A DNA stretch of 62,609 nt, the filler included, from Globobulimina sp. (taxonomy: Eukaryota), in NCBI GenBank assembly GCA_003354225.1. It is 29 parts of 29 records of this genome, joined end to end, with 100 filler letters (N's around TTAATTAATTAA, not from the genome) between each part and the next. Parts side by side here need not be neighbours in the genome. Positions count along the whole stretch, not along the records: positions 1 to 2,064 come from PIVH01009308.1; 28 more parts are not named here. The stretch is one strand, 5' to 3'. Position 1 is the stretch's first letter; the number at the start of each line of letters is the position of its first letter. Below are positions 1-51,804 of the stretch, in pieces. The notes under the pieces are model-generated. The model was given only the letters and a program-made list of their open reading frames with translations. It made no database searches and was not told where the DNA came from. The translations under genes and the position numbers were made by a program.

Positions 1-762
1 ATTTATTCTATTGATCCACATAAAATTGCTGTCATTGTCGCTATAATCGCAACTCACATTATCTGCTACGCGACGACTTAAACGCCAATGATTCCAAAAC
101 GACACCGGAGCGTAATTATGCACTGTAAACATTCTTCTTTTTGTGATATTATCAATTTTTACAAACTCATGGAACATTTGCAATTCTGCGACATTGGCTA
201 AGTGCGTTAATACTGTTTTCGACGCAATCGAATGTAAAGTCGTCCATAATTGCTTCATTTCTGTTAATTCCGTGTGATTTGCCAATCTAAGCGTCGCCTT
301 TTCTTTTTTTATTAATTGAATCGTCGTACGTCGTAATATCGCACTGTGCGCTTTTTTCGATTTTGGTGTTGAAATTACGAGCTCTTTTATTTTTGTCTCT
401 AATTTAAACGGATCTCTATAATGTAGAGCACAAATATTATAATAGTCGATGTGATGAGATTTCCACAGTAATTTTCGACCGAGATTGCGATATAATTTGT
501 ATATTTGCCACACGTCACTGGTAAAATACATGCTTGCGCGGAAATAAATTCTCTGATGTTTTAATATAAAATTGTTATTTGTGATATTTTCTGATGAATG
601 AGATTGAATAAATGATGATACTGTCGACCGATGAGGCAATGCTCTAAAATTGCAGCTCATACGTGACTGCATGGTACGAACACGATTTCTCAAATAGAGA
701 GAGGTGAACGACCGCACGTGAACTCCAAATCGGTTGGGCCTAATTCTGCACGTTATATCCAT
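1..762 (-). CDS. Penelope-like element (PLE) reverse-transcriptase ORF, N-terminal region; runs off the window start
   Basis: Manual translation from ATG at 762 gives 254 stop-free codons (absent from the ORF track). Segment YRNLGRKLLWKSHHIDYYNICALHYRDPFKLETKI...AILRRTTIQLIKKE resembles the PLE N-terminal pattern H..F...C.....P..L.....IL......L..E. Confidence 0.6.
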   Translation of the reverse strand, partial: MDITCRIRPNRFGVHVRSFTSLYLRNRVRTMQSRMSCNFRALPHRSTVSSFIQSHSSENITNNNFILKHQRIYFRASMYFTSDVWQIYKLYRNLGRKLLWKSHHIDYYNICALHYRDPFKLETKIKELVISTPKSKKAHSAILRRTTIQLIKKEKATLRLANHTELTEMKQLWTTLHSIASKTVLTHLANVAELQMFHEFVKIDNITKRRMFTVHNYAPVSFWNHWRLSRRVADNVSCDYSDNDSNFMWINRIN

Positions 763-848
763 AAAGGACTGTTATTAATAATGCAATTAAACAATATAAT
801 TGATAGTAGATTATAGTACGAATTAGTTTAATCTGTTTGTTATTTGTT

Positions 849-890
849 CACTGAGCTTTCGGCTAACTTAAAGTAGCCATTGTCAAAGTG
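849..890 (-). ncRNA. Minimal type I hammerhead ribozyme, U3-A8 core variant
   Basis: Minus strand reads CACU-UUGACAA-U-GGCUA(cuuuaagu)UAGCC-GAAA-GC-UC-AGUG: stem I CACU/AGUG, stem II GGCUA/UAGCC, palindromic AGCU stem III, UC cleavage site. Confidence 0.7.
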
Positions 891-1222
891 TTTTTAATTG
901 AAGTTTATTAACACAAACAATTACACAAAAAACTTACAAACACTTAAACAAAATACCACACAGATAATCACACGTGAAAAAAATATATATATCACAGTTG
1001 CAAACCAACGCAAATTAATGAATCAAAACACAAACTGATTCTTAAATAAAAGTAATAAAAAATAAAGCCGAAACTAAAAAATTAAAACCAATGTAATTCA
1101 CGTAACAAAATTTAAAAATAAAACACAAAAAACTATCCGCAACATACAAATAAAGCGGGTGTAATAGCAACATACATGAAATACAATAATAAAATGATAA
1201 AAAATCTAATAAACTCCAACAG

Positions 1223-2064
1223 CTATAACATCGATGCGAACTGTTTGTCTTGATCTTCGTCACTCGAATTCAATAAATTTTGTTTCTCCCACTCAGCCCA
1301 CTTAGTTTTGAATGGAATGTATGGCTTTGGATCGATTCTAATCTCCATTGTATCATTAATAGCATCTAAATCTTCGTCGAATAAATCCAGAAAATCGTTT
1401 CCCGTTTCTACTGCGTTGAATGTCAAATCCAGATCCAAATTTATGTCGTTTGTATGTACAATAATTGAATTCTCATCAAAATGCATTGAATCCCACACTT
1501 TTTCATCCAACTCATTCAATGTCTTCTTTTTCAAATTGTTATTTTCAATCGATATCTCTGACATGTTTTGTATTTTTGTATTTAAATTATTGCTTAATAC
1601 ATTTTTTTGTTTTATATAATTCTCTAAATCAAATGTTTGTTTTTGTAGACGGGGCGGGATATCACCGTCTTGTTCCAACACTCGATTTGTTAAAGCAACC
1701 AATGTTTTGTTAATTTCTGTGTTTAATTCTGATAATTTTGATTCTTCATTTTCTAATAATGTCATATCTAAATTTATGTCGTTGACATTATTAAAATTAT
1801 CCCAATCGATATCAATTAACGTGTCATTTTCTGATATTTTTGATAGATTAATACCAGTAAAAGAAGATGATAATTTATTTGGATTTTTATTGAAGAAAGA
1901 AGCAAAATGTAGCTCTTTTTTCAATTTCGTAATCTCTTTATTTGTTTTTACTTTGTCTTTTTCTAAAATCCGTGTGATTTTATCTAATTCCTTCACTCTC
2001 AAATCCCTCTCCAAATCCATTAATTGTTGATCGACTTTTTTAGTGAAGTCTCGTGTAAATGTTC
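1223..2064 (-). CDS. Coiled-coil/acidic protein, 5' truncated; probable accessory ORF of the PLE
   Basis: 265-aa ORF stays open upstream to the contig edge; heptad-rich; co-oriented with the hammerhead and the PLE-like ORF. Confidence 0.6.
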
Positions 2065-4132: not shown

Positions 4133-4338
4133 ACGATATGTGCCATATTTATCAAGTCTTTGTGATTTGGTTATATTTTATTTATATTTATGTTCAGAAT
4201 TTGAAAATGCTGCAGCCTGCCATACCAANNNNNNNNNNNNNNNNNNNNNNNNNNNNNNNNNNNNNNNNNNNNTTAATTAATTAANNNNNNNNNNNNNNNN
4301 NNNNNNNNNNNNNNNNNNNNNNNNNNNNTCTGAAATGA

Positions 4339-8554: not shown

Positions 8555-8725
8555 NNNNNNNNNNNNNNNNNNNNNNNNNNNNNNNNNNNNNNNNNNNNTT
8601 AATTAATTAANNNNNNNNNNNNNNNNNNNNNNNNNNNNNNNNNNNNNNNNNNNNACCAACCTTGTAATCGGTTGCCATTTAAGCATCAAACTTGAGTTTT
8701 AGCACAGAAAATTGTTGAGAGAGAC

Positions 8726-9930
8726 ATGTCAGTCATGAAGTCAATCCGGAATGTATTTTCCAACAAAAAAAATAGGTACCAAACTGGCGCAGATACCATA
8801 GATTATAACATGGGGCTTTCGGAGCAAAGAGCAAAGAAAACCATTCGAATCTTATTATTAGGTCCCGGCGACAGTGGTAAAACCACCATTGTAAAGCAAA
8901 TGAAAAAGATCCATGAGACCTTAACCGAGGAAGACATCGCCATCATGGCGCCCTACATTCAGGACGCCGTCATTGGATATATCAAATTATTATGTTTCCA
9001 ATGCAAAGAATTGTACGAAAAAGACGACGAAAAAACTAAAGTTGAAGAAAAAAACGAATCATTACGCAAAGAAATATTAGATTTGCATTCGCCATATGAG
9101 CTAAACCAAGCTTTAGCCGATCAAATAGCAAAAATGTGGGCTGATGTTAAGTCGCCAAACTAGTCACACTACGCAAAATCGCATAAAATCCACAAAAAAA
9201 CTACACAAATCTAAACATACAGCAAGCAATCAAAGAAACGTTACGTTTGCGGGCCAAATTTCAGATCCACGACAACGTGGCACATTTTTTGAACAGAATT
9301 GATGATATTTGCCGCGCGGATTACGTGCCGACGTTTGATGATTTCCTGAGGATTCGGACCCGCAGCACCGGCTTTGCCATGGAAAAAGTGTCTGCAATGA
9401 TTGATAATTTCGGCGAGTTTTGCTTTGAGTTCACCGATGTCGGCGGGCAACGCAGTGAACGCAAGAAATGGATGAAAATCGTGGTGGATCAGATCCAGGC
9501 GGTTTTGTTTGTGGTCGCCATCAGTGAGTTTGACTTAAAATGTTTCGAAGACAATGAGACAAATCGATTGGTTGAAGCACTTAACTTATTTAAGGAGATT
9601 GTGGGTGGCAAATTTTTCAATGGCAAGTCTGTGTTGGTCTTCTTTAATAAATACGATTTATTTAAGGAGAAAATCTTAAAAACGCCAATAACCGTTGCTT
9701 TTGACGACTTTCCTACGGACGAGAAATCGGACCCATTTGATGAGAATCAGGTGGTTAAGTTCATAGCGAGCAAGTTTTTGCAGTGTTTTGACGGCAAAAA
9801 TATCAAATTAGCCACGCCGTTGCATATTCATAGAACGAGTGCGTTGGACACGAATAATATACAGAAGGTGTTTAGGGATATTACGTTGGATTTGGTCAAG
9901 TTGAATTTGAAAGAATGTGGAATGATATAA
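8726..9930 (+). CDS. Heterotrimeric G-protein alpha subunit, two exons (intron 9146-9222)
   Basis: GPGDSGKT, RTRSTG, DVGGQRSERKKW, NKYD and TSALD motifs; a GT..AG intron joins the two ORFs in frame. Confidence 0.95.
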
Positions 9931-10274
9931 ATTAAAGAGGAATGGAATCCATTGTGTACAATATTGTTTTTGTTTTGTTTTGTTTGTTTTTTTGTTTTCT
10001 TGTTTCAACATAATATTATTGTTTTAAGAGTGTTTTGATGGCTTTTTATATTTTCTATATCGACTATATGAGATTTTTTGTGTGTTGCGCGTTCTAAAAT
10101 GGACAGATAAAAGTTAAAAAAAGATAAAATGTTAATTAAAAATCATGAAAATGCATGAAAAGTATTTTCAGTGGAAATCACACTTGAACTGTTTTCTGTG
10201 AAAACCAAACTAAACCAAATCAAACCAACCAAACCTTTCAGATTCATATTTTATCCATATCACCAGAGAACGTT

Positions 10275-10717
10275 ATGTCCGACGAGCCAGTATGCATATT
10301 ATCCACCGGCCAGGCCGTACCCGATTCAATTTTCACATTAGCAGACTTTATTGAATTACAAAAATCAGCGGCTGACTTTGCCATCTCCAAATTGGACAAA
10401 AATGATATGTCTCAAAATCAGCGTATCAAAGACATCGAGAATAACTTCGCTTGGGTCGAGCGCTGTGCTAAGAACTCAGCCATCGATAAGCGACACGGCA
10501 TCATCCCCGACGATGGCAAGCGATTACAAGATTTTTATGAGAAATACGAGTATAACCCGCCCTATAACTTACGTGCCAAATATTGGCGCAGATATTGCCC
10601 AGAATTGGCGATGACGGCAGTCAAACAGGCATTGGCTGAATGGGGCGGTGATAAAAACAAAATAACGCATGTTGTATCGCACAGTACCACCGGTTGGGAC
10701 GTGCCTGGCTTGTCGCA
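10275..10717 (+). CDS. Type III polyketide synthase (chalcone synthase-like), N-terminal part, 3' truncated
   Basis: ILSTGQAVP, IDKRH and ELAMTAVKQALAEWGGDKNKITHVVSHSTTGWDVPG match the CHS N-terminal domain. Confidence 0.85.
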
Positions 10718-36671: not shown

Positions 36672-38746
36672 NNNNNNNNNNNNNNNNNNNNNNNNNNNNN
36701 NNNNNNNNNNNNNNNTTAATTAATTAANNNNNNNNNNNNNNNNNNNNNNNNNNNNNNNNNNNNNNNNNNNNCCACCACAATTAAGCACACATTATGTCAA
36801 TAAAAAGAGAGTGAGCCGACAATTAAAACCACAATTAGAAGATGTGACATCTGATGGATCTGTAACATCGGTAAGTTTATTAAATGCATTGAGTCCACTA
36901 CAGCGAATTGGGAATAATGATATTGTTAATAAGGAAATTGACTATCTTGATGTTGGTCACTATGGACAGGATTCGACGAGTTGCAGTTTACGAACGGCGG
37001 CGAGTTTTGTAACTGCATCTTCTACCTTCTCTTCCATCACGCATCAAACATGTATAAGTTACATTTATTCCAATTACATCAAATGTCTTCCCTTTCAGTT
37101 CTAAAATCCAATCCAAATCATTTGCTTTGCCCACAACTGATTGAGTAATATTTATAAAACATTCAGAAAAATATAATCCGCATAACCAACTAACTTCGTT
37201 GAAGCTGATATTGCCTGCATATTAATGTCTGTATCTTCAACACATGTGCAACTTTATCATATATATATATTTAAATTGAAAATGATTAAAATTAAATTTT
37301 AAATCTGGATTCCCCATCGATCGGACGTCGACATTAACGCCAACAAATTATCCAACAATGTTGCAACATATTCATTCATTCATTCCTGCCCAATCTCCAA
37401 TGTCTAAGTACAATTTATTAATATTTTGGAGCGCCAACCCGATCTTAACTCTAATATTTTTATAGTACTGCCAGTTATATAATTATTTAGTGTCTTTTCA
37501 TATATATTGGCTTTCAGTGATTTTGTCCTTGAATACCAAGGATGATGATAATGTTTGTGGTCTATGAATAATTCTAAATAATACAATGAATTGGGGTCTC
37601 TTGCCGCGATATTTAAACATCGACAGACTTTTTGAACTTGAATTAAATAATTCTTTTTCTTTTAGAAAATTAAAAGCTACAATTTTTAAATCTTTTGGGA
37701 CGCTTAGAAACGTTAATGGTTGTTTTTCATCATTTTCTTTTTTATCTTCGTCGTTTGAGTCAATGGCACTTTTTGAAATGCTGTCATCTAAATTTATTAA
37801 TTGTTTTCAATGGGTGAGGATGATAAAATATTTTGAAATATATGAGAGGAAATATCCGTTGATTTGGTGCATTAAATATGATATTTGATTCAATTGATTG
37901 GTCAACAATTGCAAATTAACTATGATTGAACTTTATGTCTAGCCCTCGCTCACATAATTGTAATGCCTATGTTTTTCATGGGAACGTGGGTTGTTCAGTT
38001 CTTTTGATATTGGACGTGATCTTTCTGTGATAATTTATGTTTATGAAAAGTGTCTATAGGTTAAGTCCGTTTTGATATTGATGCACATCTAAACTAACAG
38101 CAATTCTTTGTATTGAATTAAAACTTCCCTCTCATTCTATAAAATGTTGCCTCTCCGCGCACAAAAGAAGTGTGAACTAAAAAGTTAATATGGATTGAAT
38201 AAATCGATAGATGCGTAATATACGATATATATATTAATATAAACCGTTTTTGTTTCAAAAATCCGAACATATTTTGTAAAATCGTTATGTTTGCTTTGTT
38301 ATCAACGGCTAATAATTGACATTAATTGCAACATAATAATATTTAAACCATTTACATTTGTGATTTAATAATCACTCTGAATATTTTGAACTAGTCTCAA
38401 TTTCTCCGATATTACTTATTGACAAATATTGCAACATTTGTGTATTTTGTATGATTATAATATCATATTTATTATCTTTGTCGTTAATTTGCATTGATTT
38501 TCTTTACAATAAATCTTGAAAATGGTCCATTTTAAGAAAATGTAAGAAAGTATGTTTTTTATCACAAAACTGTAGCTATACTTTCAAAATCATCTCGGTG
38601 GCTCAAACCTCGTTACTTTGTGAACAAAATAATTAATACCACCTGATGAGTCTCCACAACATCAACATGAATAAAAACAGTGGTATGTTTGCAACGTTTT
38701 TCTTTCTGATGAGTGAAAACACATTAATATATATATATATATATAT

Positions 38747-38833
38747 AACCAACCCTAACCAACCCTAACCAACCCTAACCAACCCTACCCAATCCTAACC
38801 AATCCTAACCAATCCTAACCAATCCTAACCAAT
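38747..38833. repeat. Telomere-like 10-mer tandem repeat (AACCCTAACC then AATCCTAACC) preceded by (TA)n
   Basis: About four units of each variant running to the contig end. Confidence 0.9.
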
Positions 38834-43257: not shown

Positions 43258-44351
43258 GTTATCATTTCCGTATGCGTTCTGTCCGAATCTCCGCTGCAAT
43301 TTATAATGTACTTTCCGATATTTAGAATATTTTTGGTGGACCGATAATTATTAACCAATTGCACCTCTAAATAGTCTGGAAATGTGTTTTTAAATTTTGT
43401 ATGAAAATTCTGTGAGCCTCGCCATGAAAATATAGTTTGATCATTGTCTCCGACCACCATTATCGACTTGAAATCTCTCCGCTTTTTATATCTGTGCAAA
43501 ATGAGCGTTTTTGCAATTAAAAACTGGATACAATTCGTGTCCTGAAACTCGTCAATCACAAAATGCGAATATTTATTTGTGCTGACAATAATATCCAAGA
43601 TTTTGCTGCGTTTGTTACTGTTAAATAACTGCATGGTTTTCAATAATAAGTCATTAAAATCTAATTTATTTTGCGATGTTAATTCTTTCTCATATTCTAA
43701 ATATATTTTTGCTGCCAACTCATATAATTTGATCATCTCATTTCGTTGATTGTTATTCAATTTATTATTGTAATCAAAATCTTTTCTATCCACTCTCTCC
43801 ATGAATTCTTGTGCGTTTTCAATGTGTCTCTTTGCGGCGGCGATGATATTTTCTATTCTGTGGATCGCGATTTTGTCACGATTTAATTTCTCCTGTTTTA
43901 TAAATGATAATATTTGTTTATTCTGCTTCAGTATTTGTGTGATTATTGGTTGTGTTTTCGTTAATATTCCAAAGTTGCGATTTAATCCGATATATTCGCC
44001 ATATTTCCTTAGGATTTTTAAACAAAATGCATGGAAAGTTTCACATTGAACTTTTGAATAAATTGCATTTTTGTCATGGTTGTTATTATTGTGTGTAATT
44101 AATGTACGCATTATTCTATCTTGCATTTCTTTTGCGGCCTTATTTGTAAATGTCAATGCTATGATACAGTTGGTTGCTATATTTCTATTTGTGATTAGAT
44201 ATTTGATCCGTTCAACAATTACTCGCGTTTTGCCTGCTCCCGGACCTGCATTCACCCAAATTGGCAATATATCCGCGCAAACTGCTTCCCGTTGTCGATC
44301 GTCTAAATGGCTAAGTTCGTCAATGGGAGTTAGTTTAGTACGCTTGGACAT
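43258..44351 (-). CDS. UvrD/PcrA/Srs2-family SF1 helicase, N-terminal half
   Basis: AGPGAGKT, TFTNKAA, TFHAF, DEFQD, VGDNDQTIFSWRG and NYRST motifs. Confidence 0.95.
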
Positions 44352-44477
44352 GATGCACAGCGCAATCGTATGAGTTGTTAAGGTGCGTCCATGTTCAAAC
44401 AGTTTAGTAAAATGATATTATTTAAGTTTTTTATTATAGTGACAATAATGAAAAACTGTAACAACCACACAACAAAA

Positions 44478-49743: not shown

Positions 49744-50252
49744 ATATGATATCTGTAACAAAATTGATGTCACACATTTATGCAACAAACTTACAGTTTG
49801 ATAAAATGGATGAAATAAGAAATGAAATACGAAATGATATAAAACACAAAAACGTGTATGGTATGTCTCATATTTATATAAATGGAGAAATACACAAATA
49901 TATTGCTGGTGATATTGTTTTTGATGATGAATTGTTAAATTTATCATTAAAATTGAAAGAATTGTATGACTTCACACATGATTTTAATGCCATCACAAAG
50001 CGATTGAATACAACGAAGGAGAAAGAAATTGAACTATGTAGACACAGTGAGAAATTAGCATTAATGCATGGATTAATAAATGCAGATAATAAATATCAAA
50101 TTGTGATCAACAATAATTTAAGAATGTGTAACGATTGCCATACATTTATAAAACTAGTGTCAAAACTGTATGATAGAAACATCATTGTGTCTGATCCAAA
50201 TCATGTTCACTTGTTTAAAAATGATAAATGTAGTTGTAATGATTATTATTAA
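49744..50252 (+). CDS. C-terminus of a PPR-DYW protein (E+/DYW cytidine deaminase-like domain, ending DYY)
   Basis: GMSHIYINGEIHKYIAGD, HSEKLAL, NLRMCNDCH, DPNHVHLFKNDKCSCNDYY. Confidence 0.95.
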
Positions 50253-50399: not shown

Positions 50400-51804
50400 A
50401 TGAAACAGCAGACAGGTTTGCGGGTTATACGGAAAGCGGTTGAAATTTCTTGATTTTTCTTTTTTAAAATAACAGACATAGCAAGAAGCCTATACAAATT
50501 ATCCAAATCGTCATTAACAGTGTCTCCAAATATAGACAAGACTGCTACGCAACTGATACAAAATTTGTTGAAAGTGAATGAAGAACGCAACAATTCAAAA
50601 AACAGAAACATTTACATTGTTGATAATGCATTAAAAATATACAATGAAACAAAAGAAGAGTTAAAAAATTACACATTAATCAATTCTTTATTAAAAATAT
50701 TTTCTCATTTCAAACAACCTGAAAAAATATCGACTGTTTGGAATAAAATTAATATTTTGGCAAATGAGAATCATGCAATATCATATCCATTGTTATTTGA
50801 TTGCTGTATCAAATCAAATCCAATAAATGTCAACGATGCAATGCAATGTTTGGAATGGATGAAATTTCAAAACTATCGTTTACATTTTGATGAAATGCAA
50901 TTATTTTCAAAGAATGCATCAAAACTTATAACAAAATGTAGTCAAAACAATGCTGATATTAACCAAATAAAATATATTCATTCTTTAGTTGATAACATGG
51001 ATGATATTTACATCAAAACTGCATTGATTAATGCATATGGTATCACTGCAAAAACACACCAATATTCATACAATGTGTTTGAATCAATACAGGAGAATGA
51101 CAAAAACAATGTTGTTATTGGAGCCATTATGAAAGTATTAATCGAGCATCACAATGCACAAAATTTACAAAAAGTATTACATATTTATGATAAATATAAT
51201 TCATTCTCATTGATCGATGATATATCAAATATCTTTGCCGTCAAAGCCTGTATTTTGTCGGATAACTTTGAGAAAGGAAAGGAAATCATAAATAACATGA
51301 CAAATCTGAATAATACAAGACTTAATAATGTATTAATTGATTTTTATTCATATTTTGGCGATTTAACAAAAGCTGCGCAGATATTTAACGATAACAATAG
51401 TAAAAAAGATGTAATTTCTGTCGCTGCTCTAATGAAAGGATATGTCAATAATAATTATAATCAGCAAGCATTAAAAGTGTATGATGATAATATTGCATTA
51501 AATGATGATATCTGTCATGTACTGGCCATTAAAGCTTGTATATCTGACAATAATTTTGAAAAAGGACAAGAGATTGAACAGAATTTATCTTCAAACCATT
51601 CCATTGTGGCTAAAACGAGTTTGATTGATTTTTATTTTCATTTTGGATGCATTGAGAAAGCTGAAAATATATTCAATTCCATCCATGCCAATACAATTGA
51701 TATCATTGCAGTTAATGCAATGATGACGGGATATATCGCAGCTAATATGTATGATAAAAGCTTATTATTATATAATAAATATTGTGATTTACATAATGAT
51801 GCAT
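50400..51804 (+). CDS. PLS-like pentatricopeptide repeat protein; probable intron 50416-50475; 3' truncated
   Basis: Repeats such as KTALINAYG, NVLIDFYSYFGDLTKAAQIF, AALMKGY, LAIKAC, TSLIDFYFHFGCIEKAENIF. Confidence 0.9.

Follow-up and report, generated by a model that had tools for sequence, protein, structure and literature searches.

We found a hammerhead-like motif within a recurring block of DNA on the first contig (contig 1, positions 1–2064) of the 62,609-nt window studied here, the window being the whole stretch of DNA that was analysed. We see about an even chance that contig 1 is one copy of a dispersed repeat that bears the hammerhead and carries an open reading frame (ORF), named ORF B, beside an unrelated gene, named ORF A, in a probable foraminiferan. 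Within the sequence seen, this repeat is best read as resembling Penelope-like elements (PLEs) in its ribozyme only. The window is made of 29 pieces of 2,061–2,064 nt each, arranged by descending length, and it contains 56 runs of 44 N. The linkers between the pieces have the form N44-TTAATTAATTAA-N44 (for example, 2065–2164 and 4229–4328), and adjacent pieces are no genomic neighbours. Since 29 unrelated contigs have thus been joined, the finding is limited to contig 1, and nothing beyond 2064 provides context for it. The pieces are small genomic contigs of one AT-rich eukaryote (GC 26–43% per 2 kb), because they carry ordinary eukaryotic genes (G-alpha, cGMP-dependent kinase, MFS transporter, RMI1, PPR/DYW and linker histone) and poly(A) ends are found on none of the 29.

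The features that concern the repeat are the following:

849..890, minus strand: type I minimal hammerhead-like motif with a three-way-junction fold and the features described in PMC4209133
848..893, minus strand: strongest recurring block, 46 nt, consisting of the hammerhead fold plus 4 nt, raised in all four sequencing runs
771..847, minus strand: variable segment, containing a recurring block at 806–841, absent or shortened in other copies
725..770, minus strand: second recurring block, comprising the last 8 nt of the leader, the ATG (762–760) and the first 12–13 codons of ORF B
1..762, minus strand: ORF B, the first 254 codons from the ATG at 762, open at base 1, basic, no family recognised

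A hammerhead-like motif in a recurring block

Read along the minus strand, the motif begins with a helix I of 4 bp (890–887 paired with 852–849), followed by the core 886–880 (UUGACAA), in which U886 corresponds to U3 and A881 to A8. An unpaired extra U (879) stands between A9 and position 10.1. Helix II (878–874 paired with 865–861) has 5 bp, is opened by G878-C861 (G10.1-C11.1) and closes an 8-nt loop (873–866); it has 6 bp if U879-G860 is counted, as in the minimum free energy fold. GAA follows at 860–858, a self-complementary AGCU at 857–854 (positions 15.1–16.1) and C17 at 853, and the predicted cleavage site lies between 853 and 852, 3' of C853. The GAA-A and U16.1-C17 elements of the canonical hammerhead are present. 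Two copies of the motif, when cofolded, formed an extended duplex, which is uninformative on the active fold. Over both strands of the window, a minimal-hammerhead descriptor finds exactly one site, namely 849..890, and none in the other 28 contigs, compared with a mean of 0.013 sites per window in 300 first-order Markov shuffles (0.010 if helix II needs 5 bp). The segment 849..890 exceeds chance as a hammerhead-like motif, and its sequence supports a minimal hammerhead architecture of the Penelope type, for which cleavage is a prediction. The initial annotation of this contig had placed a hammerhead at 890–849; the fold and the minimal-hammerhead features bear it out, but the core is non-canonical and has no Rfam match.

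We then investigated the recurrence of contig 1 in Logan contigs of four runs (X1–X4), which were aligned to 1–2064 at >=90% likeness. These runs come from one public sample of one study, possibly the assembly's own source, and no RNA runs are among the listed sequencing runs that contain contig 1. Most of the contig is covered by single Logan pieces identical to the window, with a word depth of ~3–5. In run X1, 52 pieces aligned, of which 10 are >=99% alike and 42 are below 99%; among the 30 pieces listed over the four runs, the ones unlike the window are concentrated at 725–895. Block 848–893 is represented by short pieces of depth 90–166 in all four runs, and its bin sum in X1 is 578, compared with ~5 for its flanks. 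These flanks (at 847/848 and 892/893) vary, with three different consensuses on each side. Upstream of 893, three of the four versions (the window counted) have TTCAATT and a similar T/G-rich run, and are diverged look-alikes. Because the flanks vary but look alike, the copies are diverged homologues, in which the ribozyme-shaped core is far better kept than its flanks. A 2793-nt contig of run X4 (depth 89) has the block at its 2705–2750, in gene orientation and 43 nt from its end. In one or more repeat units, the hammerhead is thus preceded by 2.7 kb of repeated sequence, and the unit terminates or branches 43 nt past it.

The second block, 725–770, reaches a depth of 62–245 in runs X2–X4. 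Between the two blocks, some copies skip the variable segment: a 770>848 joint, which leaves out 77 nt, is found in three contigs of X3, and a 771>848 joint is found in one contig of X1 (side of 34 letters). Loose ends also occur at 770 and at 806–809. These recurring pieces support the view that the hammerhead motif belongs to a multi-copy repeat. A search for further copies had been proposed in the initial annotation, and both the hammerhead block and block 725–770 do recur in public contigs, but ORF A does not recur with them. The hammerhead block, searched as a DNA pattern in metagenome contigs, gave 0 matches.

Two other identities for these segments were considered and rejected. The skipped segment 771–847 does not look like an intron, as it would begin and end with AC on the gene strand, and with GT on the opposite one. 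A spliced-leader or small nuclear RNA gene had come into question for the Sm-like string GAUUUGG (731–725); this string encodes the RFG residues conserved in Bolivina (see below), and no small nuclear RNA of Rfam was found.

ORF B and the reach of the repeat

ORF B begins at the ATG at 762, which is the first ATG after an in-frame stop (774–772) and lies exactly 86 nt past 849, and its 254 codons stay open to base 1; the unannotated ORF reported earlier at this distance from the motif is therefore confirmed. The protein is basic (K+R 16%, D+E 7%), and its AlphaFold2 (AF2) model from a two-sequence alignment is all-helical, with low confidence (pLDDT 48.9). An exhaustive HMMER search among 1.84 billion representatives gave one homologue, P0001 (229 aa, E 1e-17), which is 29–30% identical to ORF B (29% over 232 columns) and shares the start MDI..NRFG.H.RS. 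P0001 is a transcript-derived EukProt protein of the foraminiferan Bolivina argentea and the sole member of its cluster. The same start in P0001 supports the ORF B start codon, the reality of the gene and its foraminiferal (rhizarian) origin, and the probable rhizarian host of the initial annotation agrees with this only relative. Since block 725–770 holds the ATG and the encoded protein is conserved in Bolivina, ORF B is tied to the repeat and is a real gene. At 606, one loose end runs on into a sequence of ~75–80% identity (by eye, over 30 letters), which suggests diverged paralogues of ORF B. Judged from these sequences, ORF B appears to be one of a group of diverged copies with a common conserved leader.

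The initial annotation had also ascribed a PLE-like N-terminal motif to ORF B and regarded it as a reverse transcriptase (RT)-type ORF. Neither claim is supported by the part of ORF B seen. Regular-expression searches of the 254 residues found no G.K[FY], DK[GT], GIY, YIG or [FY].DD, and no CxC; no search linked the protein to an RT or gave a GIY-YIG signal, and its sole homologue is only 229 aa long. P0001 has one DKT, at residue 153, which is aligned with nothing conserved. Pfam gave no family for ORF B, and NCBIfam gave noise; a two-sequence profile matched no PDB sequence at E<=10. Longer or fused relatives were absent among 5076 candidates. Pattern searches gave 599 matches in JGI metagenome contigs and 24 in IMG/VR, and 0 were confirmed in either. 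No RVT or GIY-YIG family of Pfam was found in the 51 scanned of the window's 73 ORFs of >=110 aa, and no Logan contigs reach past base 1; an RT core, if there is one, would lie beyond this edge. One lead for ORF B in the ESM Atlas (best score 0.84, to clusters that in part carry P-element-type TNP-like domains) was dropped, as it is at chance level by the figures of the Atlas search itself, and P0001 scored 0.76 without a family, so that the two proteins disagree in their look-alikes.

High depth is found only at ~725–895, and the body of ORF B is at unique-level depth. Such a pattern would fit a short non-autonomous element of ~170–180 nt with one hammerhead, for instance a solo or 5'-truncated pseudo-long terminal repeat (pseudo-LTR) or a retrozyme-like or short interspersed element (SINE)-like unit, which lies before a host multigene family (ORF B) unrelated to transposition or now serves, through co-option, as its leader. 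In animal genomes, most minimal hammerheads are single motifs thought to be truncated PLEs (PMC4209133), and animal retrozymes are described as non-autonomous PLE derivatives (bioRxiv 10.64898/2026.07.22.740005). We nevertheless regard a short element of this kind as unlikely. Block 725–770 includes the ATG and first codons of ORF B, and since this N-terminus is conserved in Bolivina, the start of ORF B is no chance by-product of an insertion. The 2.8-kb high-depth contig with the block also argues that longer repeat units exist.

Several observations weigh against a dispersed hammerhead-bearing repeat that carries ORF B. An Rfam cmscan of 1–2064 on both strands (E<=10) returned five matches, all far below gathering and none a hammerhead. 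The canonical core CUGANGA is replaced by UUGACAA, with two departures (C3>U and G8>A) and an extra U before helix II, and a scan of the window for the canonical core gave 0 sites. The helices are short, helix I having merely 4 bp and helix II merely 5 bp. The descriptor was built from published minimal-hammerhead features but was written after the motif had been seen, and its figures are therefore generous to the motif; a first descriptor, without the bulge between 9 and 10.1, missed the motif and gave 0 sites in the window (0.0 and 0.04 in the shuffles). There is no second hammerhead for a dimer on contig 1, nor are an RT, an endonuclease, terminal repeats or a target-site duplication present on this contig, where ORF B runs off the edge. 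As for the recurrence, all four runs belong to a single sample of a single study, summed contig depth does not give a copy number, block 725–770 is not raised in X1 (bin sum 10), the sides of the three 770>848 joints are short (26 letters), and at >=90% likeness the depth over the body of ORF B is at the unique level.

Some of these observations would suit an arrangement with nothing mobile in it, in which a chance hammerhead-like hairpin lies between two ordinary tandem genes. The lack of an Rfam match and the non-canonical core agree with this, and so does the folding of the motif, whose energy is only mildly unusual (z -1.96; 9 of 200 shuffles fold equally well), while the 196 nt of context are no more stable than shuffled sequence (z -1.11). 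A compact protist genome would in any case be expected to show this tandem layout of gene A, 460-nt spacer and gene B. However, the motif is expected only 0.013 times per window, and no other piece of the contig recurs as strongly as the 46 nt around it, which have several different flanks and recur in all four runs. The two-tandem-genes reading is thus disfavoured, and we regard it as highly improbable.

Returning to the preferred reading of a dispersed repeat that carries ORF B, a mechanism can be proposed. The element would be transcribed by read-through from upstream, or transcription would come from copies in tandem or nearby. A pair of hammerheads might join via the palindromic AGCU, build helix III and cut 3' of C853. 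The start of ORF B lies 90 nt (852 to 763) downstream of this predicted site, and cleavage would free an RNA whose 5' end precedes the ORF by that distance. In this scheme, the hammerhead shape, its recurrence and its place before a conserved ORF start are seen, and the remainder is inferred. Release of an RNA by the hammerhead matches the processing role proposed for PLE hammerheads (PMC4209133), and similar hammerhead-generated 5' ends have been proposed for PLE and retrozyme transcripts.

A further-reaching interpretation, which we hold tentatively and with more doubt than belief, is that this is the first dimer-type minimal hammerhead family outside animals, found in Foraminifera, where it would occupy the 5' leader of a basic-protein gene that is repeated and has no detectable kinship to PLE, RT or other transposon proteins. 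If true, it would represent a PLE-related clade that is deep and so far unrecognised, or else another class of element or gene family, in which a PLE-type ribozyme trims mRNA 5' ends out of read-through transcripts. Searches by title and abstract found no literature linking hammerheads or PLEs to Foraminifera, and Penelope and Reticulomyxa co-occur merely in passing. The word 'Rhizaria' has 0 occurrences in the main text of PMC8557442, the supplements of which may list rhizarian PLEs. A hammerhead-bearing repeat in this lineage, and its combination with an ORF such as ORF B, have probably not been described before. A foraminiferan family would widen the range of PLE-type minimal hammerheads and offer a handle on repeats in Foraminifera, whose genomes are barely assembled. 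Such a family would also show that the coding part of an element can be far less conserved than its 46-nt ribozyme block and, should no RT be attached, that a PLE-type ribozyme can serve another kind of gene.

ORF A, the U-rich spacer and the other contigs

Two further features lie upstream of the repeat core:

1226..2062, minus strand: ORF A, the C-terminal 279 codons, open at the contig edge, with its stop at 1225–1223, helical and acidic
891..1222, minus strand: U-rich spacer of 332 nt, 54% U, the 3' flank of ORF A and the upstream flank of the repeat core

ORF A is open on the minus strand from 2062 to 1226, and all coordinates given for it in the initial annotation are right, as is the U-rich character of the spacer that follows. 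Its description as a coiled-coil ORF is plausible, in that a single-sequence AF2 model predicts three long helices (2–58, 88–130 and 137–191), but this is a low-confidence model (pLDDT 46.8). The encoded protein is acidic (D+E 20%). No homologues were found among proteins of near length (1280 candidates) or among longer ones (4606 candidates); Pfam gave merely a sub-threshold BORCS6 match, and NCBIfam sub-threshold noise. Runs X2 and X3 also contain a second version of ORF A (1340–1739), which differs from the first at 17 of 394 nt (~96% likeness) and may be an allele or a recent paralogue. Ten of the 16 listed differences (1321–1586, four of them known solely from a further short X3 piece) are synonymous. 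ORF A is therefore a real gene, and its variant copy evolves, to judge from these substitutions, under purifying selection.

One Logan piece matches ORF A from 1224 upward and then continues with 235 unrelated letters past the stop codon. Apart from this piece and the ~96% variant, there are no extra pieces for ORF A and the spacer, both of which are at unique-level depth (spacer word depth ~5–6, near that of the ORFs). ORF A is best read as an unrelated, low-copy neighbouring host gene, probably outside the repeat, because its depth is unique-level, compared with a roughly hundred-fold higher summed depth of the hammerhead block, and its 3' flank diverges. A diverged ORF A-like ORF may lie upstream of other copies of the repeat, because their upstream flanks look distantly alike.

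These data bear on the architecture put forward in the initial annotation, i.e. one polycistronic, ribozyme-punctuated PLE of the Athena/Terminon type, in which ORF A is an accessory coiled-coil ORF, the hammerhead lies in between and ORF B forms the N-terminal part of an RT protein. The three features are indeed found on one strand in the order described, the hammerhead is of the type known from PLEs (PMC4209133), and Terminons have both coiled-coil ORFs and hammerheads (PMC6431247). The flanks of other copies above 893 look like diverged relatives of the spacer, so that the repeat may extend upstream in diverged form, and one high-depth contig has the 2.7-kb repeated stretch before the block. 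On the other hand, ORF A and the spacer are at unique-level depth, and a copy of the ORF A 3' end has another downstream flank; ORF B has neither GxKF/Y nor DKG, motifs named in PMC8557442, nor an RT signal. No reverse-complement telomere-like repeat follows the hammerhead, and the only telomere-like repeat in the window (38746–38833) has no copy in contig 1. An accessory role for ORF A is hard to reconcile with its depth, with the purifying selection on its variant and with a copy that diverges after the stop. Taken together, we consider one Athena-like polycistronic element quite improbable, and prefer a hammerhead-bearing repeat beside an unrelated gene A.

The telomeric-repeat junction that had been suggested was likewise not found: an A-rich leader follows 849, and the 10-nt unit of 38746–38833 has no copy in contig 1 (<=3 mismatches in 20), a test that used the window's own unit, which may not be the telomere repeat of the organism. 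This array consists of 8.8 copies of the 10-nt unit (in the TAACCAATCC register; earlier units are CCTAACCAAC), terminates one contig and is found nowhere else in the window. It is a candidate telomere-like terminal repeat. Contig 1 itself contains no tRNA, no meaningful internal repeats and no long direct repeat, and has no copies in the other 28 contigs (blastn and tblastn).

We also found several genes on the other contigs. On one contig, a DYW-type nucleic-acid deaminase domain (E 4e-26) occurs together with a PPR-repeat ORF (49746–50249 and 50454–51803), so that this protist may have a PPR-DYW factor of the RNA-editing type. Two adjacent ORFs (8696–9160 and 9187–9927) share a G-protein alpha subunit between them, matching profile positions 4–122 and 122–329; a short intron or a frameshift between the ORFs would fit this split. 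The N-terminal domain of a UvrD/REP-type helicase (43258–44417, E 4e-61) lies on a contig with a GC content as low as that of the remainder. An ORF at 10188–10715 has a chalcone/stilbene-synthase N-terminal domain (E 5e-08) and resembles type III polyketide synthases; the GC content of its contig is higher, at ~39%.

Comparison with known systems

The Athena/Terminon elements of bdelloid rotifers, which lack an endonuclease, combine a hammerhead with a multi-ORF coiled-coil layout (PMC6431247), the arrangement proposed earlier for contig 1. However, the Terminon hammerhead is 3'-terminal and is followed by reverse-complement telomeric repeats (PMC6431247), whereas an A-rich leader and an ORF follow it here. 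With ORF A lacking the recurrence of the repeat and no telomere-like repeat after the hammerhead, this architecture is not borne out.

Other PLEs include the endonuclease-containing Penelope/Poseidon, Neptune, Nematis and Hydra, and Naiad/Chlamys with an N-terminal endonuclease (PMC8557442). Like these, the present repeat has a hammerhead in a non-coding region adjoining an ORF start and forms a repeated family. The 2.7-kb repeated stretch before the block in one contig is also of PLE size, Hydra elements being <3 kb (PMC8557442). In contrast, an RT, GIY-YIG, GxKF/Y, DKG and CxC are all absent from the 254 residues of ORF B seen, and the absence of GIY-YIG from this N-terminal part excludes the Naiad/Chlamys layout. 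In PLEs, the hammerhead lies within pseudo-LTRs that stem from partial tandem insertion, and contig 1 has one hammerhead and no long direct repeat; the high-depth 2.8-kb contig, which ends 43 nt after the block, fits a pseudo-LTR but is no proof of it. The element cannot be filed as a PLE on the sequence seen.

The closest likeness is to the minimal hammerheads of PLEs. In metazoan PLEs, minimal hammerheads are reported to occur in mass, and the hammerheads of protist PLEs to be of the monomer type with a large helix III (PMC4209133). In common with the minimal type, the contig 1 motif is of type I and has a 4-bp helix I, an extra nucleotide between A9 and 10.1, G10.1-C11.1, GAA, a helix III reduced to a palindromic AGCU, and U3-A8 instead of C3-G8 (PMC4209133). 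The covariant U3-A8 core is known from ~1,300 Schistosoma mansoni motifs and was found with Cercyon PLEs (PMC4209133). All four hallmarks that this study gives as not imposed by its search are present in the contig 1 motif. The published motifs form large families per genome, mostly as single motifs, with covariation and compensatory changes (PMC4209133), and the recurrence of the contig 1 block with different flanks would be in keeping with many copies. Published sizes are 4–5 bp for helix I and 6–8 bp for helix II, compared with 4 bp and 5 (or 6) bp here; for helix II, S. mansoni has 7–8 bp and D. virilis 6 bp (PMC4209133). Helix III of the published type is missing or has 1–2 bp, and a palindrome at 15.2–16.2 or in loop 3 makes a dimer possible (PMC4209133). 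The present motif differs further in that its host is a protist and that no PLE ORF is seen beside it.

The non-LTR retrozymes and hammerhead SINE-like repeats are a last point of reference (bioRxiv 10.64898/2026.07.22.740005). Those of animals are thought to derive from PLE pseudo-LTRs. Retrozymes are non-coding and often tandem, whereas the recurring part described here enters a conserved protein start and has no tandem copy on the contig; what they share with it is an organization in short recurring units around a type I hammerhead.

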